From Aquificota bacterium (lineage in GTDB: Bacteria > Aquificota > Aquificia > Aquificales > Aquificaceae), in contig CP076324.1 of NCBI GenBank assembly GCA_018771605.1, forward strand, positions 1,317,700 to 1,341,699: DNA of 24,000 nt, written 5' to 3'. How positions within the stretch are numbered: the stretch's first letter is position 1; each line of letters starts with the position of its first letter. The position numbers were made by a program, and so were the translations under genes. The notes beneath the pieces were generated by a model, which saw only the letters and a program-made list of their open reading frames with translations, had not been told where the DNA came from and did no database searches. Of this stretch, positions 37 through 13,438 are shown in pieces.

Positions 37-1161
37 GTGGCATACATAACAGATACTTATCACCATATAAACGGCGTTGCAAGAAGCGCTAAGCTTGTAA
101 GGCAGATAGCCATGGAGGAAGACCTGCCCTTTACAGTCCTTATATCCAGCTCAAGCATAAGGGAAGAGGAAGGCCTCATAAACTTAAGGCCTTTGGTGGA
201 AATTCCCACACCCTTTTATGAGGAGCTTAAGATGGGCCTTCCCAACTTCCTTGACCTTGTGGACCTCTTAGAAAAAGAAGGCTTTACGCAGGTTCATATA
301 GCCACGCCGGGGCCTTTGGGCCTTTTGGGCCTTTTGGCAGGGAAGATTTTGGGCCTTAGAATAACCTTTGCCTTCCACACAGACATACCCACCTATGCAA
401 GGACCTATACAGGAGACCCAGACTTGGAAGAACTCCTTTGGAAGGCCTTTGTGTTTATAGGAAATATGTCCCACAAGTTCTTTGTGCCTTCTGAATACTA
501 TAAAAAGGTCTTTGTAAATAAGGGGCTAAGCTACGGAAAGATAGGTATATTTAAAAGGGGTGTGGACACAGACCTCTTCTCACCGGACAAAAGGGAAGAT
601 GGCTTTTGGGCAAGAAGGCTTGGCATAAAGAAACATCAAAGGGTCATACTCTATGTGGGAAGAGTCTCAAAGGAAAAAGGCTTGGATAACTTTTTGTATG
701 TGGCAAAGTGTTTCCCGGAAGACACCTTTGTAATAGTGGGCGATGGCCCATATAGAAAGGAAATAGAGGCCAAAAGGCCAAAAAATGTACATCTTACCGG
801 CTATATGGTGGGTGAAGAGCTTGCAAAGGCCTACGCCAGCTCCGATGTCTTTCTCTTCCCTTCCGAGACGGAGACCTACGGTCAGGTGGTGCTTGAAGCC
901 ATGGCAAGCGGTCTTCCTGTTATAGTTAGCTCTAAGGGTGCTTCCCATGAGCATGTACAAGAGGGTGTAAACGGCTTTATAGCCACAAGGCCAGAGGAGT
1001 ATGTGGAAGCTCTATCTTTGCTCCTTTCTAACGAAAACCTAAGGAGAAGTATGGCCCAAGAGGCCCTATACAGCGCCAGAAGGCTTGATTTGAGAAAAAG
1101 CTATATAGATTACATGCTTGCCATAGCAGGCCTTGGGAGGTTAGTGTATGAAGTTGATTGA
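37..1161 (+). CDS. Glycosyltransferase, GT4 family (GT-B fold, retaining type)
   Basis: The N-terminus (MAYITDTYhhINGVA) and the C-terminal GRVSKEKG ... E(T)ETYGQVVLEAMASGLPVI motifs are typical of GT4 enzymes. The start is GTG at 37. There is no in-frame stop between nt 1 and 37, so the ORF could extend left of the window. Confidence 0.85.
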   Translation: MAYITDTYHHINGVARSAKLVRQIAMEEDLPFTVLISSSSIREEEGLINLRPLVEIPTPFYEELKMGLPNFLDLVDLLEKEGFTQVHIATPGPLGLLGLLAGKILGLRITFAFHTDIPTYARTYTGDPDLEELLWKAFVFIGNMSHKFFVPSEYYKKVFVNKGLSYGKIGIFKRGVDTDLFSPDKREDGFWARRLGIKKHQRVILYVGRVSKEKGLDNFLYVAKCFPEDTFVIVGDGPYRKEIEAKRPKNVHLTGYMVGEELAKAYASSDVFLFPSETETYGQVVLEAMASGLPVIVSSKGASHEHVQEGVNGFIATRPEEYVEALSLLLSNENLRRSMAQEALYSARRLDLRKSYIDYMLAIAGLGRLVYEVD

Positions 1162-2263
1162 TATAACACCCTATTTTCATAGCAAGAGTGGTGGCATAAA
1201 AAGGTATCTTTTGGAAAAGGCAAAGTTTTTACGGGATAAGGACATAGAACATGTGATCATAATACCAGGCAAAAAAAGGAGGGAATACTACATAGAGTCC
1301 TCCAAAGTATATGAACTTCCTTCCTTTCCCCTTCCACTCACGGGAGGCTATAGGTTCTTTTCCTCTTTGAATGAGATAAAAGAGATACTCAAAGAAGAAG
1401 GCCCAGAGGTGGTGGAGCTTGGCGGAACCTACCAGCCCATCCCTTTTTTAAAGTCGGAAGGCTACCTTCTTAGCGTTTTTTATCACTCGGATGTAAGGAC
1501 GGACCTTTCCCTTCTTCCTGCACCGAACAAGCTAAGGAAAAGGCTTTTGGAACACACCATAAAGAAAAGGCTATCAAAGGCAGACCTCATCATCACCCCG
1601 TCAAAAAGGCAAGAAGAATTCTTAAGAAGCTTTGGGCTTGAAAAGGTTATCACCATAAACTTGGGTGTGGATACAAACATCTTCAACCCAAACAAAAGAA
1701 ACCCTTACTTTGAAAAGGCCCTTGGTGTAGAAAAGGACAAGTTCAAAATAGTCTATGTGGGAAGGCTTTCCCCAGAAAAGAACGTAGGGCTTTTACTTGA
1801 GGTCTTTCAACATCTTGACCCCACTCTCTTTCATCTTATAGTGGTAGGAGATGGACCCCTAAGAAAGAGGGTGGAAAATCTCTCCAAGAAGCTTCCAAAC
1901 TTAACCTACCTTGGATATATAGAAGATGAGAAGGAGCTTGCCCAGATTTATGCCAGCTGTGATATATTCCTTAGCGCCTCTCTTGGAGAGACCTATGGTC
2001 TTTCCTTCCTTGAGGCGCAAGCCTGCGGATGCCTCCTTGTGGCCTTTGATATGGGTCTTGAGACACAACCCTTTAAGGAGTTTTTGGCAAAGGAGAAAAG
2101 CCCGGATGCGCTTTACGACGCCATAGTAAAAGCATGCCATTCTTTAAACCTTAGTATGAGAGAAAGAATAAGCTCTTATATTGCGCAAAACTTCTCTTGG
2201 AAATCCACCTTTGAAAAACTAATAAACCTTTACGCCGGCTCTCTTGCGGGTGCTTGTTCTTAA
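1148..2263 (+). CDS. Glycosyltransferase, GT4 family (second, paralogous)
   Basis: GRLSPEKNVGLL ... GETYGLSFLEAQACG is the GT4 EX7E-type C-terminal domain. It overlaps the upstream GT gene by 14 nt, so the two are probably co-translated. Confidence 0.85.
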   Translation: MKLIDITPYFHSKSGGIKRYLLEKAKFLRDKDIEHVIIIPGKKRREYYIESSKVYELPSFPLPLTGGYRFFSSLNEIKEILKEEGPEVVELGGTYQPIPFLKSEGYLLSVFYHSDVRTDLSLLPAPNKLRKRLLEHTIKKRLSKADLIITPSKRQEEFLRSFGLEKVITINLGVDTNIFNPNKRNPYFEKALGVEKDKFKIVYVGRLSPEKNVGLLLEVFQHLDPTLFHLIVVGDGPLRKRVENLSKKLPNLTYLGYIEDEKELAQIYASCDIFLSASLGETYGLSFLEAQACGCLLVAFDMGLETQPFKEFLAKEKSPDALYDAIVKACHSLNLSMRERISSYIAQNFSWKSTFEKLINLYAGSLAGACS

Positions 2264-2299
2264 CCAAATCTTAACAATTTTTCTTTAAATTATTTTTTT

Positions 2300-2506
2300 A
2301 TGAAAGACAGAATAGAAGATTTATTGAGGGAGATTGAAAGGGAAAAAGCTTCTTACAACAGGCTTCTTAAAAAGGGTGAAAAGGTAAGAAGGCGTGAGAG
2401 AGATACCTTTTTAACAGAAAAGGACAGGACCATCCTTATAGAATCTTTTGTAGTTGGTGGCCTTATAGAAAACCTTATAACAAAGGCTATAAATAGAATC
2501 TTTTAA
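2300..2506 (+). CDS. Hypothetical small protein (68 aa, charged N-terminal half, hydrophobic C-terminal helix)
   Basis: The evidence is an ORF with host-like codon style only. There is no recognisable Shine-Dalgarno (upstream is an A/T run) and no family is recognised. Confidence 0.3.
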   Translation: MKDRIEDLLREIEREKASYNRLLKKGEKVRRRERDTFLTEKDRTILIESFVVGGLIENLITKAINRIF

Positions 2507-2641
2507 CACTTGGTAAGGAATCCATTCGCCGTATACCATGCCCTTGTTTGTCTCATTTATTTTTAGCAAAAAGTGATAGTGGCCTCACGTTGCTTAATAC
2601 ATTTCTCACTCAAGGTATGTTGCAGATAATTATAAAAACCT

Positions 2642-2995
2642 CTAAAACACTTTCTCTATAGCACTTAAAACCCTTTTATAGTTTCCATATATCTTTACCC
2701 TTCCCTCAAGGATATACCTCAAAAGCCTTGAAGGCTTCTCAATAACTCTAATAAGGTCCTTGTAGTTCAAAACTATTCTGTCTTCCACCTGCAGTGGCTT
2801 TGGAGTGTGGTTTATGCCCTCTTGGCTTATAAGGAAGTGTTCCATTTGTCCGTTGGGAAGCTCCACCGTTAGAAGTATGGGGCTTTTTAGCTCTCTTAGG
2901 GCTTGGCCATGCTCTTCTTGTAGGTGGTGTGCCAGTAGCTTTAGCTCTCTAAGGTAGTCTTCAGTATTCGCTTTCAATGTGTATGATCCTCTCAT
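2642..2995 (-). CDS. SCP2 (sterol-carrier-protein-2)-like lipid/hydrophobic-ligand binding domain protein, last gene of the ATPase operon
   Basis: The pattern ILLTVELPNGQMEHFLISQEG...IVLNYKDLIRVIEKPSRLLRYILEGRVKIYGNYKRVLSAIEKVF follows the SCP2 consensus (..F.l.g.ggg.w.ld...g.......d..i....edf..l..G.l.....f..Gklk..Gd...a.k...lf). It overlaps the upstream gene by 35 nt. Confidence 0.6.
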   Translation of the reverse strand: MRGSYTLKANTEDYLRELKLLAHHLQEEHGQALRELKSPILLTVELPNGQMEHFLISQEGINHTPKPLQVEDRIVLNYKDLIRVIEKPSRLLRYILEGRVKIYGNYKRVLSAIEKVF

Positions 2996-3218
2996 CCCTT
3001 GATAGCCTCCCTATTATGTCCTCAAGCACCTCAAAGGCCTTCTCCTCTGTGGAATAGATGCCAAGGACAGCAGGAAGGAGAGGCTGGCTCATGTAGGCCA
3101 CCACCTTATAAACCAGCCTCTTTTTACCTTCCACCTCTATCTTTGCCTCTTCCACCGAAAGGGATATAACGTGAAGAGTATTAAGATACCTTCCACTTCT
3201 TGTCCTCAAAAAGTTCAT
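2961..3218 (-). CDS. Hypothetical 85-aa soluble protein of the ATPase operon
   Basis: The ORF has a 4-nt ATGA overlap with the upstream gene and a 35-nt overlap with the downstream gene. No family is recognised. Confidence 0.5.
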   Translation of the reverse strand: MNFLRTRSGRYLNTLHVISLSVEEAKIEVEGKKRLVYKVVAYMSQPLLPAVLGIYSTEEKAFEVLEDIIGRLSRDERIIHIESEY

Positions 3219-3496
3219 GCCTCTTCCTTCTTTTCCTCCTCTTTGAGGGCCTTTTTGGCACCCTCTACTGCACCTTCCACCGAGTATCTGACCACCCTTA
3301 AGGCCTTCTCTCCTATCTCCGCAGTGGTCTTTACTATCTCCTTGCTAACCTCCATTACCTTGGATAGGGCTTCTGCTGGCAATTCTTTTAGGCTTTTCTC
3401 TTCGGCCATTCCAAGCTTTTTCTTTAGCTCTTCCAGCTCTGCCTTGATCTTTTCAAGCTCTTGGGCCAAATCCTTTTTTTCTTCCATGACTTTCAC
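3215..3496 (-). CDS. Soluble coiled-coil / amphipathic-helix protein (93 aa, phasin- or YtxH-like in style), ATPase operon
   Basis: Heptad-like E/K/L sequence (DLAQELEKIKAELEELKKKL...). A near-consensus SD (AAGGAGGTGA) lies 5 nt before the ATG. The ATGA overlaps the ATPase stop. No TM segment is present. Confidence 0.65.
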   Translation of the reverse strand: MKVMEEKKDLAQELEKIKAELEELKKKLGMAEEKSLKELPAEALSKVMEVSKEIVKTTAEIGEKALRVVRYSVEGAVEGAKKALKEEEKKEEA

Positions 3497-5568
3497 CTCC
3501 TTTTGATTGAATATAATCCTAAAAGCAAAGTAGCACCATTGTTTATAAGGGTTGAGACTGATGGTCCTATGAGCCCAAGGGCAGAGCCCAAAAGGCCAGC
3601 AGTATTTATAAGGTTGTTCAATCTATAGACTCTTTTAAGCCTTTCCATAGTCTCCTGAGCTATATCCACCACATCCAATAGGTGCCAAAGGCTATCTCCT
3701 ATAACAATGTCCGCCACCTCTATGGCTATGTCCGTGCCACTCCGTAGAGATATGCCCACATCTGCAGAAGTCAAAGCGGGAGAATCGTTCACACCATCAC
3801 CTACAAAGGCAACAACCCTACCTTGTTTTTTAAGCTCTTCCACCACCCTTGCCTTTTCCGCGGGAAATACCCTTGCATAAAACTCCTCTATGCCCAGCTC
3901 CCTCGCCATGTGGCTTGCAATGCCCTCGTTGTCTCCAGTGCAAAGCACCACCCTTTTACCCCTCCTTTTTAGCTCAGCCACCACATCCTTTGCCTCTTCT
4001 CTAAGAGGGTCCCTAAAGGTAAGAAGGCCCACTATCTTCCGGTCTTTTACCAAGTATAGAACGGACTTTGCCTCCGAGTGAAACTTATCCACAAGGCCTT
4101 TTATCTCTTGGCTTATCCTTATCCTTTTACTCTGCATAAAGCGAGTGCTTCCAAGCATAAACTTTTGGCCCTCAATTTCTCCCTCAATTCCAAGGCCTAT
4201 GTGGTATTTGGAGTTTTCCCTTGGCAAAAGCCTAAGGCCCCTTTCCTCCGCCAGTCTAACTATGGCCCTTGCCACAGGGTGGGTAATTCTTTGCTCCAAA
4301 GAGGCAGAGTAAAGAAGCACATCCTCTTCCGACATTTCTAATCCTACCACATCCTCCACCTTGGGATGGCCTACCGTTAGGGTGCCCGTCTTGTCCATCA
4401 CAAAGGTATCCACCTTTGAAAGGGTCTCCAGCTTTCCACCGCTCTTTATGAGTATGCCATGAGTTGAGGCCTTGGCTATTCCAGACAGCACGTTGAGAGG
4501 GGTGGTAAGGTGTATGCCCGTGTGGTAGTCTATGATAAGAGTGGAGGTAAGCCTTCCTATGTTTCCGCTAAGCATATAGGAGGAAAGGCCAATACCTATG
4601 GTGGGCAATACCATCCTGTTTGCCCACTCTTCCGCCATCCTTTGCACCCTTATGGGTTCTTTTATGCTCTCTTCCACAATCTTTGCGATCTTTGCCACAA
4701 CCGTGTTTTCTCCCACCTCCTCCACTCTTACATAGAGCTTTCCATCCTCCACAAAGGTGCCCGCATAGACCTTGTCTCCCACCTTTTTATGCACAGGGTT
4801 TGACTCTCCCGTAAGGCTTGCCTGGTTTACCAAGGCATCACCCTCTTCCACCACGCCGTCCACCGGTATCTTTTCACCCGCATACACTACAATAAGCTCT
4901 CCCTTTTTAAGGTCCAAGGCCTTTACCCTTATGGCTTGGCCATCACCCACAACCAGCCACGCCATATCCTCCTTGTAAGAGAAAAGCCTTTCAATCTTCT
5001 CATAGGCCTTTCTTTCAACCCTTTCGGAAAGGTAGTCTCCAAGAGCAAGCAAGAAGACCATAGTGTGAGCAGAGAGGGGACTTTCCGTAAGGCTTGCCAG
5101 CACTATGGCAGAAGAGTCAAGGAAATGGACATCAAGCCTTCTTTCTCTTAGAGAACTTAAAGCCTTGTCAAAGATAGGCTTGGAAAGAAGTAAGGTCATG
5201 CCGGCCAGCAATGGATTTGGAAGGATGCTTCTAAAAAGGTAAGGGATAAAGCCAAAAGAGGTAAGCACAAGCCACCTTAAAGCTCCCTTTTCTTCCTTTT
5301 GCACCTTTGGCCTTTCCCTTGAGAGGTCCTCAAGGAACACATCCCTTGGCGTGTTTTCTATGTGGTTTAAAAAGTCTATTAGGTCAAAGCTGTCTGGGTC
5401 ATACTCAAGGGTAAGCCTTCCCGATGCTTTGGAGTATTTTACCCTCCTTACTCCGCCAAACCTTGAAAAGTAGGACCTTAATGTTTCTTCCGGATGGTGA
5501 AGGTATTGGAAAAGGTAAGAAGTTAGCCTTATCCTTCCCGGCGATAGCCTCTCTATCTTGTAGCTCAT
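3493..5568 (-). CDS. P1B-like (heavy-metal-type) P-type ATPase with N-terminal Cys-free HMA-like (HMA_2-type, PGRIRL) domain; non-canonical transmembrane ligand set
   Basis: Motifs present: TGES (A domain), DKTGTLT (phosphorylation site, D392), THP in the N domain, LCTGDN, GDGVNDSPAL. The 8-TM P1B topology has only 2 TMs after the P domain. TM4 reads IIDYHTGIHLTTP where CopA/ZntA have CPCALGLATP. There is a single Cys in 691 aa. Confidence 0.9.
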   Translation of the reverse strand: MSYKIERLSPGRIRLTSYLFQYLHHPEETLRSYFSRFGGVRRVKYSKASGRLTLEYDPDSFDLIDFLNHIENTPRDVFLEDLSRERPKVQKEEKGALRWLVLTSFGFIPYLFRSILPNPLLAGMTLLLSKPIFDKALSSLRERRLDVHFLDSSAIVLASLTESPLSAHTMVFLLALGDYLSERVERKAYEKIERLFSYKEDMAWLVVGDGQAIRVKALDLKKGELIVVYAGEKIPVDGVVEEGDALVNQASLTGESNPVHKKVGDKVYAGTFVEDGKLYVRVEEVGENTVVAKIAKIVEESIKEPIRVQRMAEEWANRMVLPTIGIGLSSYMLSGNIGRLTSTLIIDYHTGIHLTTPLNVLSGIAKASTHGILIKSGGKLETLSKVDTFVMDKTGTLTVGHPKVEDVVGLEMSEEDVLLYSASLEQRITHPVARAIVRLAEERGLRLLPRENSKYHIGLGIEGEIEGQKFMLGSTRFMQSKRIRISQEIKGLVDKFHSEAKSVLYLVKDRKIVGLLTFRDPLREEAKDVVAELKRRGKRVVLCTGDNEGIASHMARELGIEEFYARVFPAEKARVVEELKKQGRVVAFVGDGVNDSPALTSADVGISLRSGTDIAIEVADIVIGDSLWHLLDVVDIAQETMERLKRVYRLNNLINTAGLLGSALGLIGPSVSTLINNGATLLLGLYSIKRR

Positions 5569-5771
5569 TGTCCTTCTGTCTTTTCTTCCTTTAGCTTTAG
5601 CTCAAGGGCCTTTACCATAGCTTCAATCTCCCTTTGCGTCTCCTCAAGCCTTTTCTTTTCTCTTGCCCTGTCAAGCATATAAAGGGCAAGCACTCCAAGG
5701 CCAAAGCCAAGGGCAAAGCTAAAGGGACCGGAGCATACAATCCTGCCAAGTATGGACCCTATTTGGTTCAT
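5565..5771 (-). CDS. Small single-pass membrane protein (68 aa): Gly-zipper TM plus charged coiled-coil tail
   Basis: N-terminal GSILGRIVCSGPFSFALGFGLGVLALYML is followed by REKKRLEETQREIEAMVKALELKLKEEK. A strong SD (AAGGAGGT) is present. Its stop overlaps the ATPase ATG (ATGA). Confidence 0.65.
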   Translation of the reverse strand: MNQIGSILGRIVCSGPFSFALGFGLGVLALYMLDRAREKKRLEETQREIEAMVKALELKLKEEKTEGQ

Positions 5772-5783
5772 CCTTCTACCTCC

Positions 5784-6098
5784 TTACAGTCTTTCTTTTA
5801 TTCTCTGCAATATCTCCTGCTGTTTCTGGAGTATCTCCAGCTTTTTCTCCACCTCAAGCCTGTAGAGGTGCTTGGCCTCTGAGACCACATCCTCCCAAAA
5901 CTCCTTACCCTCCTCCAGATTTCCTGTGAGCCACTGCTGGAAGGCTATAACTTCCTTTGTAGCAGATACAAGTAGTGGCCTTGAGTCCTTCATTACCTTG
6001 CTGAGGACCACAAGGCCTGCAAGGGCGCCAAAGCCGTATAGCATCATGTTGGTGGATAGGCATCCACCTATGGTAGTAGGAAGGCTAAAATTTAGCAT
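5784..6098 (-). CDS. Small single-pass membrane protein (104 aa): GxxxG TM plus long helical/coiled-coil cytoplasmic domain
   Basis: The TM segment MMLYGFGALAGLVVLSKVM is followed by an amphipathic tail ending in the coiled coil EVEKKLEILQKQQEILQRIKERL. A strong SD (AAGGAGGT) lies 5 nt before the ATG. Confidence 0.65.
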   Translation of the reverse strand: MLNFSLPTTIGGCLSTNMMLYGFGALAGLVVLSKVMKDSRPLLVSATKEVIAFQQWLTGNLEEGKEFWEDVVSEAKHLYRLEVEKKLEILQKQQEILQRIKERL

Positions 6099-6109
6099 CC
6101 TTTACCTCC

Positions 6110-6481
6110 TTATAGCTTTGTTTTTAAATAGGGGACCAAAAGCATACTGCAAAGGGCAAAGGAAATAAGGCCCGCACCCCAGCCAAGGAAAGCAAGGCTC
6201 ACGACAAGCTTCACTCCAGGGTGTTTTAAAAGGTGCTGAAGGTAGAAATGTATATCTTCCTTCTCCAGCCTTTGAACCGGTTTATGCTTTATGTTCTCAA
6301 CAAGGTAGTGGAAAAAGCTCCCTTCTTTGAACCTTACAAGAAGGGTTTTTGTGTTTTCTTTGTATTCCACCCCCATAACCCCCTCCATCCCGCCCATACC
6401 ACGCAAGAAAAGGTCCCTCTCCTCTACGCTTGAAAAGTAAAGCCTCGCTTCACCTTGCCTCAGAGATACATACTCAATCAT
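6110..6481 (-). CDS. Membrane-anchored HMA-like (HMA_2-type, Cys-free) domain protein, first gene of the ATPase operon
   Basis: The N-terminal approx 70 aa (IEYVSLRQGEARLYF...GMEGVMGVEYKENTKTLLVRF...FFHYLVENI) parallels the ATPase N-terminus (IERLSPGRIRLTSY...RFGGVRRVKYSKASGRLTLEY...LIDFLNHI). The C-terminal TM is VVSLAFLGWGAGLISFALCSMLLV. I prefer ATG at 6481; the track start at 6499 is a TTG. Neither start has a good SD. Confidence 0.6.
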   Translation of the reverse strand: MIEYVSLRQGEARLYFSSVEERDLFLRGMGGMEGVMGVEYKENTKTLLVRFKEGSFFHYLVENIKHKPVQRLEKEDIHFYLQHLLKHPGVKLVVSLAFLGWGAGLISFALCSMLLVPYLKTKL

Positions 6482-6504
6482 AGGCAAACATTGTAGCAAG
6501 CTAT

Positions 6505-6547
6505 TGTTAAGATTTGGTTAAGAGGAATTGTGTTATAATTACTTAAC
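6505..6547. promoter_or_regulatory. GTTAAG repeat cluster in the divergent intergenic region (two direct copies 11 nt apart plus one inverted copy)
   Basis: GTTAAGA occurs at 6505-6511 and 6516-6522. GGTTAAG (6515-6521) and CTTAACC (6541-6547) form a 7-bp inverted repeat around the putative panC -10. Confidence 0.3.
6530..6538 (+). promoter_or_regulatory. Putative extended -10 promoter (TGTTATAAT) for panC-ribH-nusB
   Basis: An exact TATAAT at 6533-6538 is preceded by TGT. It lies 20 nt upstream of the panC ATG at 6558. I found no good -35. Confidence 0.4.
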
Positions 6548-6557
6548 CTGTGAAGCC

Positions 6558-7418
6558 ATGCCAACGCTCTTTAGAAAGATAAAGGAGATAAGGAACTACA
6601 TAAGGTCTGTTAAGTGTGAGAACAAGCATACTATAGGCTTTGTTCCTACCATGGGCTATCTGCACGAAGGCCACAGAGAACTAATAAAAAGGTCAAAGAT
6701 ACAAAACGACATTACCATAGTGAGCATATACGTAAATCCGCTTCAATTTGGGCAAGGTGAAGACTTTGACAGATACCCAAGGGACCTTGAGAGGGATATA
6801 AGCATATGCGAAGAGGAAGGCGTAGATGTTGTCTTTGCACCCCTTGACGAAGAAATGTACCCAGAAAAGCCTCTCATAAACATAGAGATAAAAGGCCTCA
6901 CAGACATACTGGAAGGGCAGTTTAGACCGGGACACTTTAACGGCGTTTGTACTGTAGTTCTTAAGCTCTTCAACATAATACAGCCAGACAGGGCCTACTT
7001 TGGTGAAAAGGACTACCAACAGCTAAAGGTAGTAGAAAGGCTTGTAAAGGACCTTAGCATCCCCGTAGAGATAGTGCCAGTGCCTACGGTAAGAGACAAG
7101 GATGGCCTTGCCCTTAGCTCAAGGAATACATACCTAAGGCCAGAGGAAAGAGAATCTGCCCTCTCTCTATATAGGTCCTTTTTGCTTGCGGAAAAGCTCC
7201 TTAGAAACGGAAACAAGGATGCCCAGACTCTTAAGGAAGCTATCAGAGAGTTTATAACAAGGCATCCACATGTGAGAAAGATTGATTATGTGGAGATAAC
7301 CGATGAGAACCTAAGGCCCGTGCAAGAGGTAAAGGAGGGTGATAGAATACTCCTTGCTGTGTGGATTGGAAATACAAGGCTCATAGACAACTGGAGGATA
7401 GGAGATGCAGAACTTTGA
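6558..7418 (+). CDS. panC: Pantoate--beta-alanine ligase (pantothenate synthetase)
   Basis: Supported by [17 protein letters not shown] and the HxGH-type nucleotidyltransferase motif, [16 protein letters not shown] and ALSSRN. The start is moved to ATG 6558 (MPTLFRKI...). The track start at 6528 would lie inside or upstream of the -10 element. Confidence 0.93.
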
Positions 7419-7866
7419 AGGCCTTTTAAAGGCGGAAGGTTTTAGCTTTGGTATAGTTGCCAGCAGGTTTAATCACCTTCTTGTAGACAGGCTAATAGAA
7501 GGTGCCATAGATTGCCTTGTAAGGCATGGAGCTTCAAGAGAAAGCATCTATCTTGTAAGAGTGCCGGGTTCTTGGGAGCTACCAATTGCGGTAAAGGAGC
7601 TAATAAACAAAAGAAAGGTGGACGGTGTGGTAGCCCTTGGCGTTCTCATAAGAGGGCAAACGCCTCACTTTGATTATATAGCCAGTGAGGTAGCAAAGGG
7701 CTTAGCATTGGTAAGCTTGGAAACTGGCAAGCCGGTTAGCTTTGGGGTCATAACTGCGGACACACTTGAACAGGCCATAGAGAGGGCTGGAACAAAGCAA
7801 GGAAACAAAGGCTGGGAAGCTGCCCTCTCTGTTATTGAAATGGTAAACCTTTTGAGAAGTCTTTAA
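7405..7866 (+). CDS. ribH: 6,7-dimethyl-8-ribityllumazine synthase
   Basis: [20 protein letters not shown]...VPGSWELP...[14 protein letters not shown] is diagnostic. It overlaps panC by 14 nt. Confidence 0.93.
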
Positions 7867-8285
7867 TGATATACAAACCACAAGCAAGGAAGGACGCCTT
7901 TTTAGTCCTTTATCAATGGGATATGAAAGGGGAACCTATTGAATCACTCATAGAAGAATACATATCCGCCAACAACATATCCCTCCAAGATAGAAGAAGG
8001 TATATGAGAAAGTTGGTAAGGACCTTCATGGAACATTCAGTAGAAATAGACAAGCTCATAGCCGAGTATTCGGAGAAATGGGACATAGATAGGGTAGGTT
8101 TTATAGAAAGAAATATACTTAGGATAGCCATAGCCGAACTTTTGTATATTTCAGCAAAGAACCCCAAAATTACTATATCTGACTACATAAAATTGGCCCA
8201 AAAGTATGCAGGGAAAAACTGCGCAAGGTTTGTCAATGGTATACTGGGGAGAGTATTGAGGGAGAAGTTGGGCATACAGGATTAG
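7866..8285 (+). CDS. nusB: Transcription antitermination factor NusB
   Basis: ARKDAFLVLYQWD...ERNILRIAIAELLY...FVNGILGRV is the NusB signature. It has a TAATG junction with ribH. Confidence 0.9.
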   Translation: MIYKPQARKDAFLVLYQWDMKGEPIESLIEEYISANNISLQDRRRYMRKLVRTFMEHSVEIDKLIAEYSEKWDIDRVGFIERNILRIAIAELLYISAKNPKITISDYIKLAQKYAGKNCARFVNGILGRVLREKLGIQD

Positions 8286-8479
8286 GGCTTTTCCTTTTCT
8301 TTTATCTCTTGACCATTTACCTCCTTTACCTTTTCTTCCTCTCCAGATATAGCCTTTTTGAAGTTTCTTATACCTTCACCCAAAGCTCTACCGACCTCTG
8401 GAAGTTTGCCAGCGCCAAAAAGCACAAACACCACAAAGAGTATAAGAAGGATTTCTGTGAAGGAAAAATGAGGAATCAT
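8282..8479 (-). CDS. tatA: Twin-arginine translocase subunit TatA/E (65 aa)
   Basis: A short N-terminal TM ([34 protein letters not shown]) carries the FG hinge and an amphipathic helix. Confidence 0.88.
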
Positions 8480-8652
8480 GCCTGCTCCTTCTTCTCGGGC
8501 TTTTTCTCCTCTTCTTCTCCAGAGAGGGCCTTTTTGAAGTTTCTTATGCCTTCACCAAGCCCCTTACCAAATTCAGGCAACTTTGAAGCTCCAAACATAA
8601 CAAGCACAACCAAAAGTATAAGTATCAACTGCCAAGGTAACGGGAAATGCAT
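8476..8652 (-). CDS. tatA: Second TatA/E paralog (58 aa), not in the supplied ORF track (below its size cut-off)
   Basis: My translation of the minus strand is [58 protein letters not shown]. Its stop overlaps the downstream tatA start (ATGA at 8476-8479). It is 177 nt long. Confidence 0.85.
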
Positions 8653-8688
8653 CTTTCACCTCCTTTTAATAAATTATAACCCTACCCC

Positions 8689-8717
8689 TTGACATAGGCA
8701 AGGTTATGGACTATGAT
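8689..8717 (+). promoter_or_regulatory. Near-consensus sigma70-type promoter for the cold-shock gene (TTGACA-N17-TATGAT)
   Basis: TTGACA at 8689-8694, a 17-nt spacer, then TATGAT at 8712-8717. This predicts a 5' UTR of about 75-80 nt before the ATG at 8801. Confidence 0.6.
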
Positions 8718-8800
8718 TATAGGTAGGCAAGTAAGGAAAGGGAGGGCGCCTTACCTTTCTAAGCTTGCTAAGTAATAATTTTTAAGGAGGTTTTTGTTCC

Positions 8801-9010
8801 ATGCCACTCACAGGTACAGTCAAATGGTTCAGCAAAGAAAAGGGTTATGGTTTTATAACCCGTGATGATAATCAGGGGGATGTGTTTGTACACTTCTCCG
8901 CTATACAGCAAAGAGGCTTCAAGACACTTCAGCAAGGTCAAAGGGTTGAGTTTGAGGTAGAACAGGATACAAAAGGTTTAAGAGCTAAAAACGTAAGAGT
9001 TATCTCCTAA
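8801..9010 (+). CDS. csp: Cold-shock domain protein (CspA family)
   Basis: [15 protein letters not shown] (RNP1) and DVFVHFSAI (RNP2) are present. It is 69 aa with an SD of AAGGAGG. Confidence 0.95.
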
Positions 9011-9018
9011 GGCTGATA

Positions 9019-9036
9019 AGCCCCCTTCCGGGGGCT
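9019..9036 (+). terminator. Stem-loop downstream of csp (AGCCCCC-TTCC-GGGGGCT)
   Basis: A 7-bp GC-rich stem with a 4-nt loop starts 9 nt after the csp stop. It is followed by an A/T-rich tract but not a clean U-run. Confidence 0.5.
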
Positions 9037-9049
9037 ATAATTAAACTTT

Positions 9050-10276
9050 ATGCGTGTTTATGACCTTTATAAGGGTAAAGACTACCACATAGTTCCAACC
9101 TTAGAAAGAATAGAAAGGGCCGTAGATTATCTTGGTTTAAAGCCTTCCTACGCATCTATTCAGGTGGGAGGGACCAACGGTAAAGGTTCTACCTGTGCCT
9201 TCATAAGCAATCTATTGCAACATCACGGTTATAAAGTTGGCTGGTTTGTATCTCCACACCTCTTTGATGAAAGGGAAAGGTGGAGGATTAACGGAAGGAA
9301 AATACCGGAAGAAAGGCTATCCGACTTAATAAAAGAGCTTAAAAATGTTTTTGAAAGGTTTGAACTTACCTATTTTGAGGCATGCACTCTTTTGGCGCTA
9401 AGATTCTTTGAAGAGGAAGGGGTTGATCTTGCAGTCTTTGAAGTGGGCATGGGTGGAAGGTGGGATGCCACAAAGGTGTGCTTGCCAGAGGTGTGCGTAA
9501 TAACAAACATACAGAGGGACCATACAAAGTGGCTGGGTGCAGACTGCGAGAGTAGGGCCGTAGAAAAGCTTGGTATATACAGAAGGGGAAAGCCCTTGGT
9601 CCTTGGAAGTATGAGGTACCCACTATATCCCAAGGCTTTGGAAATGTGCAGGGAGGAAGACCTTTATGTGGCGGGCATTGACTTTTTTTCTTACGGAAGG
9701 GTGGAGGGGCTTACCACTTTGATGGACTTTTACAAAGATGATGCTATGGACATAAAAGAGGTGGAGCTTGGCCTATGGGGAAGGTATCAGATAGACAACG
9801 CAAGCCTTGCCCTAAGGGCCACAGGCCTTTTGATAAAACTTGAAGAACAAAGGGTAAGAAGGGCGTTGAAAAATACAAGATGGGAAGGCAGGATGGAGAT
9901 AGTAAGGAAGGACCCTCTACTCATACTGGATGGCGCTCACAATCCCGATGGTGTGGCCAGGGTTGTAAAAGAGGTTAAAAGCCACCTTGGAGGCCTTACA
10001 CCAGTTTTTACAGCCTTACGTGAAAAGGAATGGGACCTATCTCTAACATACCTTAGAAGCCTATCGGACAAGCTTTACCTTGTTCCCATAAAACACCATA
10101 GAGGAGAAGATATACAAAAGGTCTATCAGAAGGCAAAAGAATTGGGCTTTAAGGAAATCCATCTTCTTGAAGAGGCACGCCAAGCCTTGGACCTTCAGGA
10201 GGATATAATAGTCCTTGGGTCCCTTTACCTTATAGGAGAAATAAAGGAAATACTTGAGGGAGTGCATGAAGGTTAA
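9050..10276 (+). CDS. folC: Bifunctional folylpolyglutamate synthase / dihydrofolate synthase
   Basis: Mur-ligase-type P-loop VGGTNGKGST, plus TNIQRDHTKWLG and DGAHNPDG. Confidence 0.9.
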   Translation: MRVYDLYKGKDYHIVPTLERIERAVDYLGLKPSYASIQVGGTNGKGSTCAFISNLLQHHGYKVGWFVSPHLFDERERWRINGRKIPEERLSDLIKELKNVFERFELTYFEACTLLALRFFEEEGVDLAVFEVGMGGRWDATKVCLPEVCVITNIQRDHTKWLGADCESRAVEKLGIYRRGKPLVLGSMRYPLYPKALEMCREEDLYVAGIDFFSYGRVEGLTTLMDFYKDDAMDIKEVELGLWGRYQIDNASLALRATGLLIKLEEQRVRRALKNTRWEGRMEIVRKDPLLILDGAHNPDGVARVVKEVKSHLGGLTPVFTALREKEWDLSLTYLRSLSDKLYLVPIKHHRGEDIQKVYQKAKELGFKEIHLLEEARQALDLQEDIIVLGSLYLIGEIKEILEGVHEG

Positions 10277-10803
10277 GTTCGTTGGTAGTTTTAAGAAGGA
10301 CTTTCCTAAGGATGAGAGAAGGCATGTGGTCTTTGCAGGAAGGTCCAACGTAGGTAAATCCTCCCTTATAAACATGGTGGTGGGGCAGGATATAGCAAGG
10401 GTGAGCAAAGAACCCGGAAGGACAAGGAGCGTTAATTTTTTCCTCCTTGAGGATTATGATGTTTATCTTGTGGACCTGCCCGGCTATGGCTTTGCAAAGG
10501 TCTCAAAGGCAGAAAGGGAAAAGTGGCGTGCAATGATAGAAGATTATTTTAAAAGCTGTTGGGAGAATATAAGGGTTGTCTTTTTGCTTATAGATAGCCT
10601 TGTGGGACCTACGGATTTGGATGTGCAAGCCATTGAATGGTTTGAGGGCTTAAGGCTTCCATATATTATAGTTCTTACCAAGTGTGATAGAGCTACACAG
10701 AAGGATATACACCAAGCTATCAAAAAGGTAAAGGAAGTCTCCTCAGCCACAGTTATACAGACTTCTTCAAAAGAGGGAAGAGGAAAAAAGGAGATTTTAA
10801 AGT

Positions 10804-10817
<14 letters not shown>
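10266..10817 (+). CDS. engB: Ribosome-biogenesis GTPase EngB/YsxC
   Basis: VVFAGRSNVGKSSLIN (G1), DLPGYGFAKV (G3) and TKCD (G4). I prefer ATG 10266, preceded by GAGGGA, over the track's TTG at 10254. Confidence 0.9.
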
Positions 10818-12656
<1,839 letters not shown>

Positions 12657-12676
12657 GATATAATTTTATATAGATA

Positions 12677-12749
12677 CGGGGTGTAGCTCAGGTGGCAGAG
12701 CGTTGGCTTTGGGAGCCAAAGGTCGCAGGTTCAAGTCCTGCCACCCCGA
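12677..12749 (+). tRNA. tRNA-Pro (anticodon UGG), CCA not encoded
   Basis: Manual cloverleaf: acceptor CGGGGTG/CACCCCG, D arm GCTC-8nt-GAGC, anticodon stem TTGGC/GCCAA with loop TTTGGGA, 5-nt variable loop, T arm GCAGG-TTCAAGT-CCTGC, discriminator A. Total 73 nt. Confidence 0.9.
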
Positions 12750-12823
12750 GGGTCCGTAGCTCAGCTGGACAGAGCAAGGGATTTCTAATCCCTAGGTCGG
12801 GGGTTCGAGTCCCTCCGGACCCG
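12750..12823 (+). tRNA. tRNA-Arg (anticodon UCU), CCA not encoded
   Basis: Manual cloverleaf: acceptor GGGTCCG/CGGACCC, D arm GCTC-9nt-GAGC, anticodon stem AGGGA/TCCCT with loop TTTCTAA, T arm GGGGG-TTCGAGT-CCCTC, discriminator G. Total 74 nt. It starts on the nucleotide right after the tRNA-Pro discriminator. Confidence 0.9.
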
Positions 12824-13438
12824 CTTTTCTTCATCCACGGATGGGGATTTAGTTCAAGAGTCCTAAAAAACATACCATCCATAGACTTACCCTTTCATGG
12901 AAGAAGTACCCTTGAATACAAGGACCTTTGGAGTCTTGCAAGGGATATAGCCTTAAGGGTGGAAAAGGGTTCCCTTCTGATAGGTTGGTCGCTGGGCGCA
13001 AGCTTGGCTCTTATGATGGCATATATGTTGCCAGATAGGTTTAGGGGGCTTTTGCTCATTGGGGCATGTGCATGCTTCTCTTGTGCTTGGCCAGAGAAGA
13101 ACCTTAGAGGTTTTATGCTAAGGCTTGAAAGGGACAGAGAAAGCTTTCTAAAAGAGTTCAGGGCCTTAGCCTATCCCAAGCCTTTTGAGGATAGCCTTAA
13201 CCTTGAGGGTGCAAGGGAGATGTTAAAGGATTATATGAAATTGGACCTAAGGCCCATACTACCATACATAAGACAAAGGACCATAATCTTGCACGGCACA
13301 GAGGACCCCATAGCACCCTTTAGCTCATCCCTTGCCCTTTACAACATGATAAAAAGGTCTAAATTAATAACCTTCTTAGGAGGACATTTCCCAAAGGATG
13401 AAAGTCTTATCTTTAAAGTTCTCAAGAGCGTGCAATAG
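12824..13438 (+). CDS. Alpha/beta-hydrolase, probable pimeloyl-ACP methyl ester esterase (BioH-like by context); start codon unresolved
   Basis: FFIHGWGF (oxyanion-hole HG), GWSLGAS (nucleophile elbow), LHGTEDP and GGHFP give an S-D-H triad. It lies directly upstream of and overlapping bioC. There is no ATG/GTG/TTG in frame between the tRNA-Arg 3' end and the HGWG motif. The track ORF (from 12692) reads through both tRNAs. Confidence 0.6.
   Translation, partial: LFFIHGWGFSSRVLKNIPSIDLPFHGRSTLEYKDLWSLARDIALRVEKGSLLIGWSLGASLALMMAYMLPDRFRGLLLIGACACFSCAWPEKNLRGFMLRLERDRESFLKEFRALAYPKPFEDSLNLEGAREMLKDYMKLDLRPILPYIRQRTIILHGTEDPIAPFSSSLALYNMIKRSKLITFLGGHFPKDESLIFKVLKSVQ

Follow-up and report, generated by a model that had tools for sequence, protein, structure and literature searches.

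A conserved eight-gene module around a non-canonical P1B-type ATPase in Aquificota, with predicted Pho boxes

The DNA considered here is a stretch of 24,000 nucleotides from an Aquificota bacterium (GenBank assembly GCA_018771605.1, contig CP076324.1, positions 1,317,700 to 1,341,699, forward strand), referred to throughout as the window, and the system in question is a group of small genes packed around a P1B-type ATPase with unusual metal-site motifs. Comparison of this locus with its relatives in other genomes confirms that it is a real conserved module, comprising eight genes rather than the seven that were recognised in a preliminary description of the same DNA. The reading preferred here, to which a probability of roughly 55% may be attached, is that the locus encodes a multi-subunit membrane platform of the Fez or PacL type, built around the ATPase and predicted from its promoters to be induced by phosphate starvation.

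In current annotation the small proteins of such loci are simply “hypothetical”, while a copper-exporter label has wrongly been given to the pump. The module is nonetheless of some general interest, as it sits between three recent systems that have been described separately, namely ferrosomes, PacL effluxosomes and CoBaHMA/calcyanin inclusions, and has parts in common with all of them. The theme running through these three is that of a pump, or an Arg-rich HMA-like membrane protein, working together with small glycine-zipper proteins; the present module adds to these shared parts four conserved proteins of orphan function, takes the principle of accessory proteins beyond the strict P1B-6 pumps, and would connect the phosphate-starvation response of deep-branching thermophiles with their handling of metals.

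Gene content and conservation

The genes are labelled here so that G1 to G7 are those of the minus-strand operon in order of transcription, G4 being the ATPase, while G8 is a separate gene on the plus strand. All seven of the minus-strand open reading frames (ORFs) originally listed are present in the window, where they run consecutively and tightly packed over positions 2642–6499. The junctions between them are also largely as first described: G1 and G2 are separated by a gap of 11 nt, and G2 and G3 by one of 12 nt, each carrying the Shine–Dalgarno sequence GGAGGT; G3 and G4 (5565–5568), and likewise G5 and G6 (3215–3218), overlap by ATGA; and G6 and G7 overlap by 35 nt, with GGAGG placed 9 nt ahead of the G7 ATG at 2995. 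The one junction that needs to be revised is that between G4 and G5. The start of G5 is most likely ATG 3487 (MEEKKD..., 90 residues) rather than GTG 3496, because the N-termini of its homologues begin at MEEKKD; as this ATG lies 5 nt past the ATPase stop codon, preceded by AGGAGGTGA, what had been taken for an overlap at 3493–3496 becomes a 5-nt gap. Similarly, G1 most likely starts at ATG 6481 (MIEYVSL...) and not at TTG 6499, both because most of its homologues begin there (9 of 13 start at, or adjacent to, the Met of MIEYVS) and because TTG 6499 sits within a predicted −10 promoter element. Neither correction weakens the case for an operon. Hydrophobicity analysis finds one strongly hydrophobic segment in each of G1, G2 and G3, and none in G5–G8. 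An Rfam scan of the window gave no riboswitch or small RNA at the locus, the only matches being two tRNAs elsewhere, and scans of the region for intrinsic terminators and sigma-70 promoters gave counts no better than those for shuffled sequence.

Conservation was examined by scanning an alignment of the ATPase clade against one genome per species, which yielded 11 loci of the same clade, and by adding to these, through look-ups of single homologues, the loci of Sulfurihydrogenibium azorense, Desulfurobacterium atlanticum, a deltaproteobacterial metagenome-assembled genome (MAG) and the complete genome of Hydrogenobacter thermophilus (where individual loci or contigs need to be told apart, they are given L-numbers below). 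Aquificaceae, Hydrogenothermaceae, Desulfurobacteriaceae, Thermodesulfobacteriaceae and other Thermodesulfobacteriota, and the deltaproteobacterial MAG all have the genes in the order G1-G2-G3-ATPase-G5-G6-G7. Homologues of the six small proteins (phmmer E-values 1e-13 to 1e-61) occupy the same positions, in the same order, beside the same type of ATPase in 8–11 independent loci from several phyla, and the suggestion that the small ORFs might be spurious is refuted by this conservation. The flanks of the module vary, with panC/ribH in the window, an amino-acid ABC transporter in H. thermophilus and the pst operon in S. azorense, and it follows that the gene set moves as a unit. The pump is always co-encoded with G1–G3, and in the clade to which G4 belongs (termed the DYHTG clade after a motif discussed below) additionally with G5–G8; in loci of the Hydrogenobaculum type only G1–G3 and a pump of DYNTN type are found, followed by a predicted multi-pass membrane protein.

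Two loci of this last kind, L010 (6736–16025) and L011, show some further peculiarities. Their pumps have DYNTN in the fourth transmembrane helix (TM4), G1–G3 are kept and are joined by an additional Arg-rich protein of 118 residues, and both G5–G8 and the Pho box are missing; downstream lie the multi-pass membrane protein, with five predicted transmembrane (TM) segments, and a KdpB-like P-type ATPase.

The eighth gene, G8 (2300–2506, plus strand), is convergent to the operon and has a Pho box of its own. It encodes a helical protein of 68 residues, in which a basic patch, RRRERD, is combined with an amphipathic stretch at the C-terminus, ILIESFVVGGL, and for which no family match was found. 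Its homologues adjoin the cluster in every lineage (L204 included), though where they lie and which way they point differs. In Aquificaceae, in S. azorense and in the deltaproteobacterial MAG they are downstream and convergent; in two Thermodesulfobacteriota loci they stand upstream, on the same strand as the cluster; and the D. atlanticum homologue is downstream, again on the same strand. It is because this adjacency is conserved in spite of rearrangement that G8 is regarded as part of the module, and to this extent the original list of seven genes was incomplete.

Of the three proteins encoded downstream of the pump, G5 (3215–3487, minus strand) is a 90-residue, highly charged, amphipathic helical protein, predicted to be soluble, with no hydrophobic segment and a maximum hydrophobic moment of 0.68. 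It occurs in at least 11 loci of the DYHTG clade (9 found by profile search, together with syntenic genes in L081, L083 and L204) and is absent from Hydrogenobaculum-type and FezB loci. G6 (2961–3218, minus strand; 85 residues) has the invariant motifs TRSGR and PLLPAV and only 54 relatives among 5.8 billion clusters, all of them “hypothetical”. In its AlphaFold2 model (predicted local distance difference test score, pLDDT, 95.7) an antiparallel β-sheet is followed by a single C-terminal helix packed upon it, and comparison of this model with the PDB gave no significant match (best E-value 0.19, TM-score ≤ 0.41). For G7 (2642–2995, minus strand; 117 residues) the position is much clearer, and its earlier description as SCP2-like is confirmed by both sequence profiles and modelled structure: all 11 members of its family match Pfam SCP2 (PF02036; best E-value 8.4e-8), the family profile also matches SCP2 chains in the PDB, and all 38 Foldseek matches to its AlphaFold2 model (pLDDT 88.7) with E ≤ 0.001 are SCP2-fold proteins or domains, including UbiJ and alkylsulfatases (best E-value 3.7e-7, TM-scores 0.46–0.70). 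It has only 17 relatives among 1.84 billion representatives, and is a candidate binder of lipid or of some other hydrophobic ligand.

The pump and its membrane partners

That G4 (3493–5568, minus strand; 691 residues) is a P1B-type ATPase is clear from its score of 486 bits against TIGR01525 (cut-off 346) and from its catalytic motifs, DKTGT, TGES, HP and GDGVND, all of which are intact and which together are those of a P1B pump working from the cytosol to the outside. It scores below the equivalog cut-offs for CopA and ZntA, and has no CPC, CPH or SPC motif, no CxxC domain and no Cys in TM4. The helices that form the metal site read LIIDYHTGIH in TM4 and LINNGAT in TM6, and a motif survey of about 100 members of the clade gave D[YF][HY][TS]G and NNG[STA][TS] respectively, with Asn676, Asn677 and Gly678 invariant. 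The next relatives (37–40% identity) have D[YF]GTG in TM4, while genuine FezB proteins, which are among the nearest relatives retrieved outside G4's own clade and align with it over the full length at 33–37% identity, have D[YF]SCA and HNxST. The defining signatures of P1B-6 pumps, to which FezB belongs, are D[Y/F]SCA in TM4 and HNxxT in TM6 (Grant & Komeili, bioRxiv 10.1101/2020.01.10.902569); as G4 has DYHTG in place of the former and NNGAT in place of the latter, it fails in both defining motifs and is not a P1B-6 (FezB) pump.

The same separation is seen in a neighbour-joining distance tree, a fast method applied here with few outgroups, in which the DYHTG clade (100% bootstrap), FezB (98%) and the DxGTG pumps (99%) form three separate sister groups. 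Their union as against the CPC-type pumps is weakly supported, at 59–71%, so that the deep branching order is correspondingly weak; the DYNTN pumps of Hydrogenobaculum fall outside the DYHTG clade in this tree, probably as a result of long-branch attraction. The non-canonical character originally ascribed to the ATPase is thus supported. The clade itself is not new, however, since Supplementary Table 1 of Grant & Komeili (bioRxiv 10.1101/2020.01.10.902569) contains the Aquificae pumps with DYHTGIH and NNGxT as a separate group, coloured separately, and the pump clade must therefore be regarded as already catalogued. The claim that the locus represents an undescribed module has to be narrowed to the set of eight genes as such, the four orphan proteins among its products and the predicted Pho control, all of which appear to be undescribed in the literature searched; nor was any characterisation of the G4 clade and its neighbours found there.

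The N-terminal domain of G4, of about 85 residues, has an Arg-rich motif, PGRIRL (residues 10–15), and so shows the RxR pattern, a trait common to related pumps that are not FezB. Aligned with the corresponding domain of FezB by hhalign it scores 97.8% (E-value 1e-12), and it has a weak match (E-value 0.03) to Pfam HMA_2, the domain that is known in the literature as CoBaHMA (PMC8890360; bioRxiv 10.1101/2024.07.07.602159); some other members of the clade carry a Pfam match.

Of the membrane proteins encoded ahead of the pump, G1 (6110–6481, minus strand; 123 residues) is, as judged by profile comparison, FezC-like in its architecture, with a detached N-terminal domain resembling CoBaHMA/HMA_2 on a C-terminal hydrophobic anchor of GxxxG type (predicted TM segment, residues 92–110). 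It is conserved in 13 loci. The evidence for its N-terminal domain comes mainly from hhalign, which gives 88% (E-value 3e-6) against the N-domain of FezB and 60% against that of G4 itself; Pfam HMA_2 matches are weak (E ≥ 0.005) and limited to 4 of the 14 family members, and in the window the GRxRxR motif of strand β1 is found in a degenerate form, GEARL. The preliminary description of G1 as HMA-like thus draws better support from profile–profile comparison than from Pfam, where it is weak. It was also stated that a detached HMA_2 domain is missing from fez clusters, which is incorrect: an HMA domain is combined with transmembrane helices in FezC (Grant & Komeili, bioRxiv 10.1101/2020.01.10.902569), and HMA_2 proteins that stand alone, with an architecture like that of G1, are encoded in the genuine FezB loci L012 and L022.

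The other two membrane proteins were correctly described as single helices followed by coiled coils. G2 (5784–6098, minus strand; 104 residues) has a GxxxG TM helix (GALAG) and a cytosolic coiled coil; G3 (5565–5771, minus strand; 68 residues), the translation of which is coupled to that of the ATPase through the ATGA overlap, has a glycine-zipper TM helix (GFGLG) and a charged coiled coil. No direct Pfam match was found for G2, that to DUF6110 by hmmscan included, but its family aligns in hhalign (83%, E-value 8.6e-6, over 53 columns) with a set of 61 small proteins that precede Firmicute FezB, and these are DUF6110 proteins. A motif of the form xxDxxxEAK is common to such pump partners, appearing as EFWEDVVSEAK in G2, as ENAEDILAEAK in DUF6110 and as EQFKDLLAEAK in a DUF5132-like protein from Nitrospira, and a homologue of G2 lies directly upstream of a genuine FezB of the DYSCA type in L012, from a deltaproteobacterial MAG (phmmer E-value 1.7e-13). 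On these sequence grounds G2 appears to be distantly related to DUF6110 and is a candidate scaffold of the FezA or PacL kind. G3, conserved in 11 loci including those of the Hydrogenobaculum type, matches no Pfam family, neither DUF1490 nor YtxH, and its counterparts in genuine fez loci (70 residues in L012, 90 residues in L022) resemble it in architecture only. Profile comparisons of the hhalign type gave no relationship of G3, G5, G6 or G7 to DUF6110, nor of G3 to the Nitrospira DUF5132-like protein; searches of Pfam and NCBIfam with G2, G3, G5 and G8 and their families gave no consistent family (YtxH, DUF1490 and DUF6110 were all missing), but one stray match to DUF5132.

In L012 (8001–12133) three genes, one G2-like, one G3-like and one for an HMA_2 domain with transmembrane segments, precede two tandem ATPases of FezB type, so that this locus bridges the gap from genuine fez clusters to the module of the window.

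Pho boxes, proposed function and the alternatives

Alignment of the regions upstream of G1 brought to light a conserved direct repeat, which in the window takes the form of an exact 17-mer, CTTAACCAAATCTTAAC, present in two copies where 0.22 would be expected by chance. One copy (6506–6522, minus strand) precedes the operon and the other (2259–2275, plus strand) precedes G8, each of them 24 nt ahead of the ATG. The operon copy has the structure CTTAACCA-AAT-CTTAAC(AA), in which a 3-bp linker separates two direct repeats of 8 bp; the full box, CTTAACCA-AAT-CTTAACAA, is followed after 10 nt by TACAAT, which forms part of a predicted extended −10 element, TGcTACAAT (6490–6498, minus strand). As this element ends only 8 nt ahead of the G1 ATG, the transcript would be leaderless or nearly so. 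The G8 box is likewise followed, after 10 nt, by a −10-like hexamer, TAAATT. In Synechocystis the Pho box bound by SphR/PhoB is made up of 8-bp CTTAACCT repeats in tandem, separated by a 3-bp linker, and in E. coli Pho boxes lie 10 bp upstream of the −10 element (PMC1906773); the boxes of the window match the published consensus CTTAACCT, with its 11-bp period and a distance of about 10 bp to the −10 element. It had been noted originally that the locus has no regulator, and while the operon does indeed contain no regulator gene, these cis elements had been overlooked.

Support for regarding these repeats as Pho boxes comes from the genes that they precede elsewhere. In L004 the same motif stands ahead of genes scoring as equivalogs of PstS and PstC, and the contig is the one that carries the module. 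A metagenome scan with the exact 17-mer, the results of which were screened for PstS and for genes of the module, returned 120 loci, mostly unrelated to the module, and in four of these contigs (L119, L162, L141 and L096, of 36–58% GC) the 17-mer precedes pstS; in L119 the pstS promoter has the same geometry as that of the operon, with 10 nt between box and hexamer. The occurrence of CTTAACCAAATCTTAAC in unrelated contigs implies that this CTTAAC type of Pho box is spread well beyond cyanobacteria and Aquificota. Coordinates for three of the copies linked to pstS are 3549–3565 in L096, 2320–2336 in L141 and 10335–10351 in L162.

Within the module family, the box upstream of G1 is kept in L001–L004, L009 and L204, and equivalent boxes stand ahead of G8 in L003, L009, L204 and L007. 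Tandem YTTAAY units with an 11-bp period are found upstream of the module in Thermodesulfobacteriaceae (four units), in the deltaproteobacterial MAG (three, with a further set before G8), in S. azorense, and in H. thermophilus, where they precede both G1 and G8. Overall, a site was found within 700 nt upstream in 9 of the 11 DYHTG-clade loci scanned, and also in H. thermophilus, as against none of 67 genuine FezB loci. The module is accordingly predicted, as one element of the overall reading, to belong to the phosphate-starvation regulon. Pho boxes identical to those of pstS have the practical virtue of naming a condition, phosphate limitation, and of doing so for two culturable organisms, H. 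thermophilus and S. azorense. In the latter (L081, 5464–6054) the Pho-box units stand ahead of two tiny ORFs (46 and 61 residues), at a distance of some 570 nt upstream of G1; these ORFs may be additional members of the operon or else a leader region.

Putting these elements together, the way in which the proposed platform would work may be outlined as follows. When phosphate is exhausted, an activator of PhoB type would induce the operon and G8 together with pstSCAB and the genes for glycolipid synthesis; the type of activator is suggested by the promoter geometry, which is that of pstS. Translational coupling would then deliver the subunits in fixed proportions, and G1–G3 would assemble with the pump and stabilise it in a specialised patch of membrane, by analogy with PacL for CtpC and with the Fez proteins for FezB. 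The pump would move a divalent cation out of the cytosol. Its candidate ligands are the invariant Asp347 in TM4, Asn651 and Asn655 in TM5, and Asn676 and Asn677 in TM6, and since a hard Asp/Asn/Thr site of this kind, lacking Cys, would suit Fe2+, Mn2+, Mg2+, Ca2+ or Co2+ better than Cu+ or Zn2+, one of the former is the more likely cargo. G5–G8 may act at the cytosolic face, in lipid handling or as a coating, with G7 binding lipid, and the role of the whole may be to get rid of cations, or to sequester them, once phosphate starvation deprives them of their phosphate or polyphosphate buffer.

The comparison with PacL is one of architecture: the module, like the PacL system of Mycobacterium, has a small protein with a single TM segment and a charged, cytosolic helical part of Glu/Ala type, encoded directly upstream of a P1B6-like pump in the same operon. 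PacL stabilises CtpC in membrane foci that have been termed metal efflux platforms; the authors of that work relate DUF6110 to DUF1490/PacL, and note that DUF6110 is typically encoded with P1B6 pumps (PMC9374683). A role for G2 as scaffold or stabiliser would likewise be expected, and the parallels first drawn with both PacL and fez systems thus seem well chosen, given that FezB proteins are among the nearest relatives retrieved outside G4's own clade and that G2 appears to be distantly related to DUF6110. There are also clear differences. A Pfam search for DUF1490 found none in G2, G3 or any of 20 family members; neither protein has a Pfam match to DUF6110, nor any motif for metal binding at its C-terminus (e.g. 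DLHDHDH), their ends being Lys/Glu-rich coiled coil with 0–1 His in each protein and a single Cys that lies within the helix. CtpC keeps a CPC motif, whereas the pump of the window has no Cys in TM4, and PacL systems are metal-induced pairs of genes, as opposed to an eight-gene module with Pho boxes. From its sequences, therefore, the module is outside both P1B-6/fez in the strict sense (its motifs having failed that test) and DUF1490 PacL, while its core is homologous to both.

Several observations weigh against the preferred reading of the locus as a Pho-induced platform. No Pho box was found ahead of the module in D. atlanticum, in L005 or in loci of the Hydrogenobaculum type. The third position of the TM4 motif is occupied variously by His, Tyr, Asn or Gly, so that the His may not be a ligand at all. 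The homologies proposed for G1 and G2 are profile–profile scores of 83–88%, rather than matches to curated models, and for G3, G5, G6 and G8 no relatives of known function could be detected. Finally, four extra soluble proteins, one of them a lipid binder, are more than the known PacL efflux platforms need, and it is for this reason that readings involving a compartment are kept alive, the membrane-remodelling or sequestration function first suggested among them. As between the two, there is a slight leaning here towards a plasma-membrane platform for efflux or metallation over a closed mineral compartment, because an iron-phosphate mineral of the kind found in ferrosomes would consume the limiting nutrient.

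A rival reading is that of an intracellular compartment or mineral store of some other kind, not based on iron phosphate, in which the module would build, under phosphate starvation, a cation store or a lipid-remodelling domain with G5–G8 as coat or lipid-transfer factors. Such an explanation is doubtful, but several points are in its favour. Basic domains of the HMA superfamily without CxxC, combined with glycine-zipper or hydrophobic segments as in the window, recur in intracellular biomineralisation, calcyanin and the HMA_2-DUF454 proteins being examples (PMC8890360; bioRxiv 10.1101/2024.07.07.602159); the related pump of the DxGTG type from Nitrospira (L205) stands beside HMA_2-DUF454, and its other neighbours include a ParA-like ATPase, an exchanger of the Ca2+/cation kind and a gene resembling those for carbonic anhydrase. 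The four co-encoded and conserved soluble proteins, SCP2 lipid binder included, would find a use in such a structure, and the module is accompanied by Pho-regulated genes for glycolipids and for lipids of the ornithine-lipid type. All of this support, however, is from context. None of G5, G6 and G8 resembles a known membrane-shaping protein; no carbonic anhydrase, cation exchanger or other Ca/carbonate gene context adjoins the module in the Aquificae loci; there is no GlyZip triple repeat of the calcyanin type; and the CoBaHMA-like domain of the window's module is fused to a P-type pump and, in G1, takes a degenerate form. A broader version of the idea is that thermophilic chemolithoautotrophs of the Aquificota and Thermodesulfobacteriota build, on phosphate starvation, a membrane-bounded cation store or domain related to ferrosomes but with a different subtype of pump, a different cargo and four new accessory proteins, one of which has a fold unmatched in the PDB. 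This too must be considered unlikely; were it true, it would constitute a second, Pho-controlled branch of the ferrosome/CoBaHMA family of organelles.

That the locus is instead a true fez cluster, forming lipid-bounded cytoplasmic granules of iron into which the ATPase would load Fe2+ as FezB does, seems improbable, in spite of the extent of the resemblance. G4 and FezB fall in the same superclade of pumps with Arg-rich and evidently homologous N-domains, FezB being among its nearest relatives outside its own clade; the operon layout is common to both, with small GxxxG and glycine-zipper membrane proteins directly upstream of the pump and an apparently HMA_2-like domain that is separate from it and has a membrane anchor of its own; in L012 a homologue of G2 adjoins a genuine FezB; and SCP2 and amphipathic proteins would suit the formation of vesicles. 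Against this, the ATPase lies outside the FezB clade and both P1B-6 motifs are missing from it, no counterparts of G5, G6, G7 (SCP2) or G8 were seen in the fez loci examined, and loci of the window type showed none of the proteins (DUF4405, FeoA and DUF2202) that have been described from fez clusters. The regulatory context differs as well. No iron-homeostasis genes (Fur, Feo) were found in the window, L001–L009, L081–L083 or L204, whereas 11 genuine FezB loci have a gene of the Fur family upstream; Pho boxes are a feature of window-type loci and, as noted above, of none of the FezB loci scanned; and induction by phosphate starvation, if correctly predicted, would fit poorly with an iron-phosphate mineral. 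Iron regulation of the module, considered as a separate possibility, was rejected on the ground that the own-clade loci examined lack Fur and other iron genes.

The last and by far the least probable explanation, that G4 is an ordinary heavy-metal resistance pump like CopA or ZntA among unrelated or spurious small ORFs, can claim the same P1B catalytic core and overall topology, the fact that CopA and ZntA are its closest solved structures (E-values 5e-84 to 6e-68, with none closer) and its labelling in NCBIfam and public annotation as “heavy metal translocating P-type ATPase” or “Cu2+-exporting ATPase”, but, as the contrast originally drawn with the copA-copZ-csoR and zntA-zntR loci rightly implied, it founders on the absence from the operon of any CPx motif, CxxC domain or chaperone, or metal-sensing repressor, on the sub-cut-off equivalog scores, and on the presence of Pho boxes and of seven accessory genes whose sequence and order are maintained across phyla and which follow the pump into new contexts.

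Genomic surroundings and other observations

Much of the genomic company kept by the module concerns phosphate or phosphate-free lipids. In the window, the 3' part of a glycosyltransferase operon (GT4 genes; 37–2263, plus strand, assigned by Pfam and lying outside the pump module) precedes G8. In relatives the same operon (L001 11175–15251, L003 9766–13843, L009 11178–15243) is headed by four tandem Pho-box units, and encodes a DUF2334 protein, a PHP-like/GT4 protein of about 750 residues and a GT4 glycosyltransferase; this DUF2334-GT4 operon probably serves the synthesis of phosphate-free glycolipid under phosphate starvation. In S. azorense the module has pstSCAB-phoU-HisKA on one side and genes for phosphate-free lipids on the other, those beside it comprising OlsB/PlsC-like acyltransferases, DUF2334 and GT4 genes, and in D. 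atlanticum it is followed by genes for a pyrophosphatase and PhoU.

Other genes near the module, or under similar boxes, were noted in passing. A further operon headed by a Pho box (L003 447–1652 and L004 2550–7036, both on the minus strand) encodes a protein without assignment (130/162 residues), a 149-residue protein, a Ras/Arf-like small GTPase (177 residues), a second unassigned protein of 412 residues and an EAL-GGDEF protein; in L004 this Ras-like-GTPase operon is divergent from G1, and in D. atlanticum Robl_LC7 and Arf-like genes occur near the module. In L003 (4845–5222, plus strand) a Cys-rich protein of 125 residues with a CZB (chemoreceptor zinc-binding) domain has a Pho box of its own; the CZB gene lies directly upstream of G1 in some Aquificaceae, and homologues are found in L129 and L179.

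The Nitrospira locus mentioned above (L205, from a MAG; 1721–11994) combines a pump of the DYGTG type with a DUF5132-like protein of 76 residues, HMA_2-DUF454 and a TMEM175 channel; the exchanger found there is of the Na/Ca kind and the carbonic-anhydrase-like gene of LCIB type, and with the ParA-like ATPase the ensemble is reminiscent, by analogy, of loci for intracellular carbonate biomineralisation.

Elsewhere in the window, two tandem small genes at 8282–8652 (minus strand) have TatA-like sequences, as judged from their translations alone. Two adjacent tRNA genes lie at 12677–12823 (plus strand; Rfam, 71 and 70 bits), and as these overlap the 5' end of the automatically called ORF at 12692–13438, for an alpha/beta hydrolase, translation of this ORF must in fact begin further downstream.

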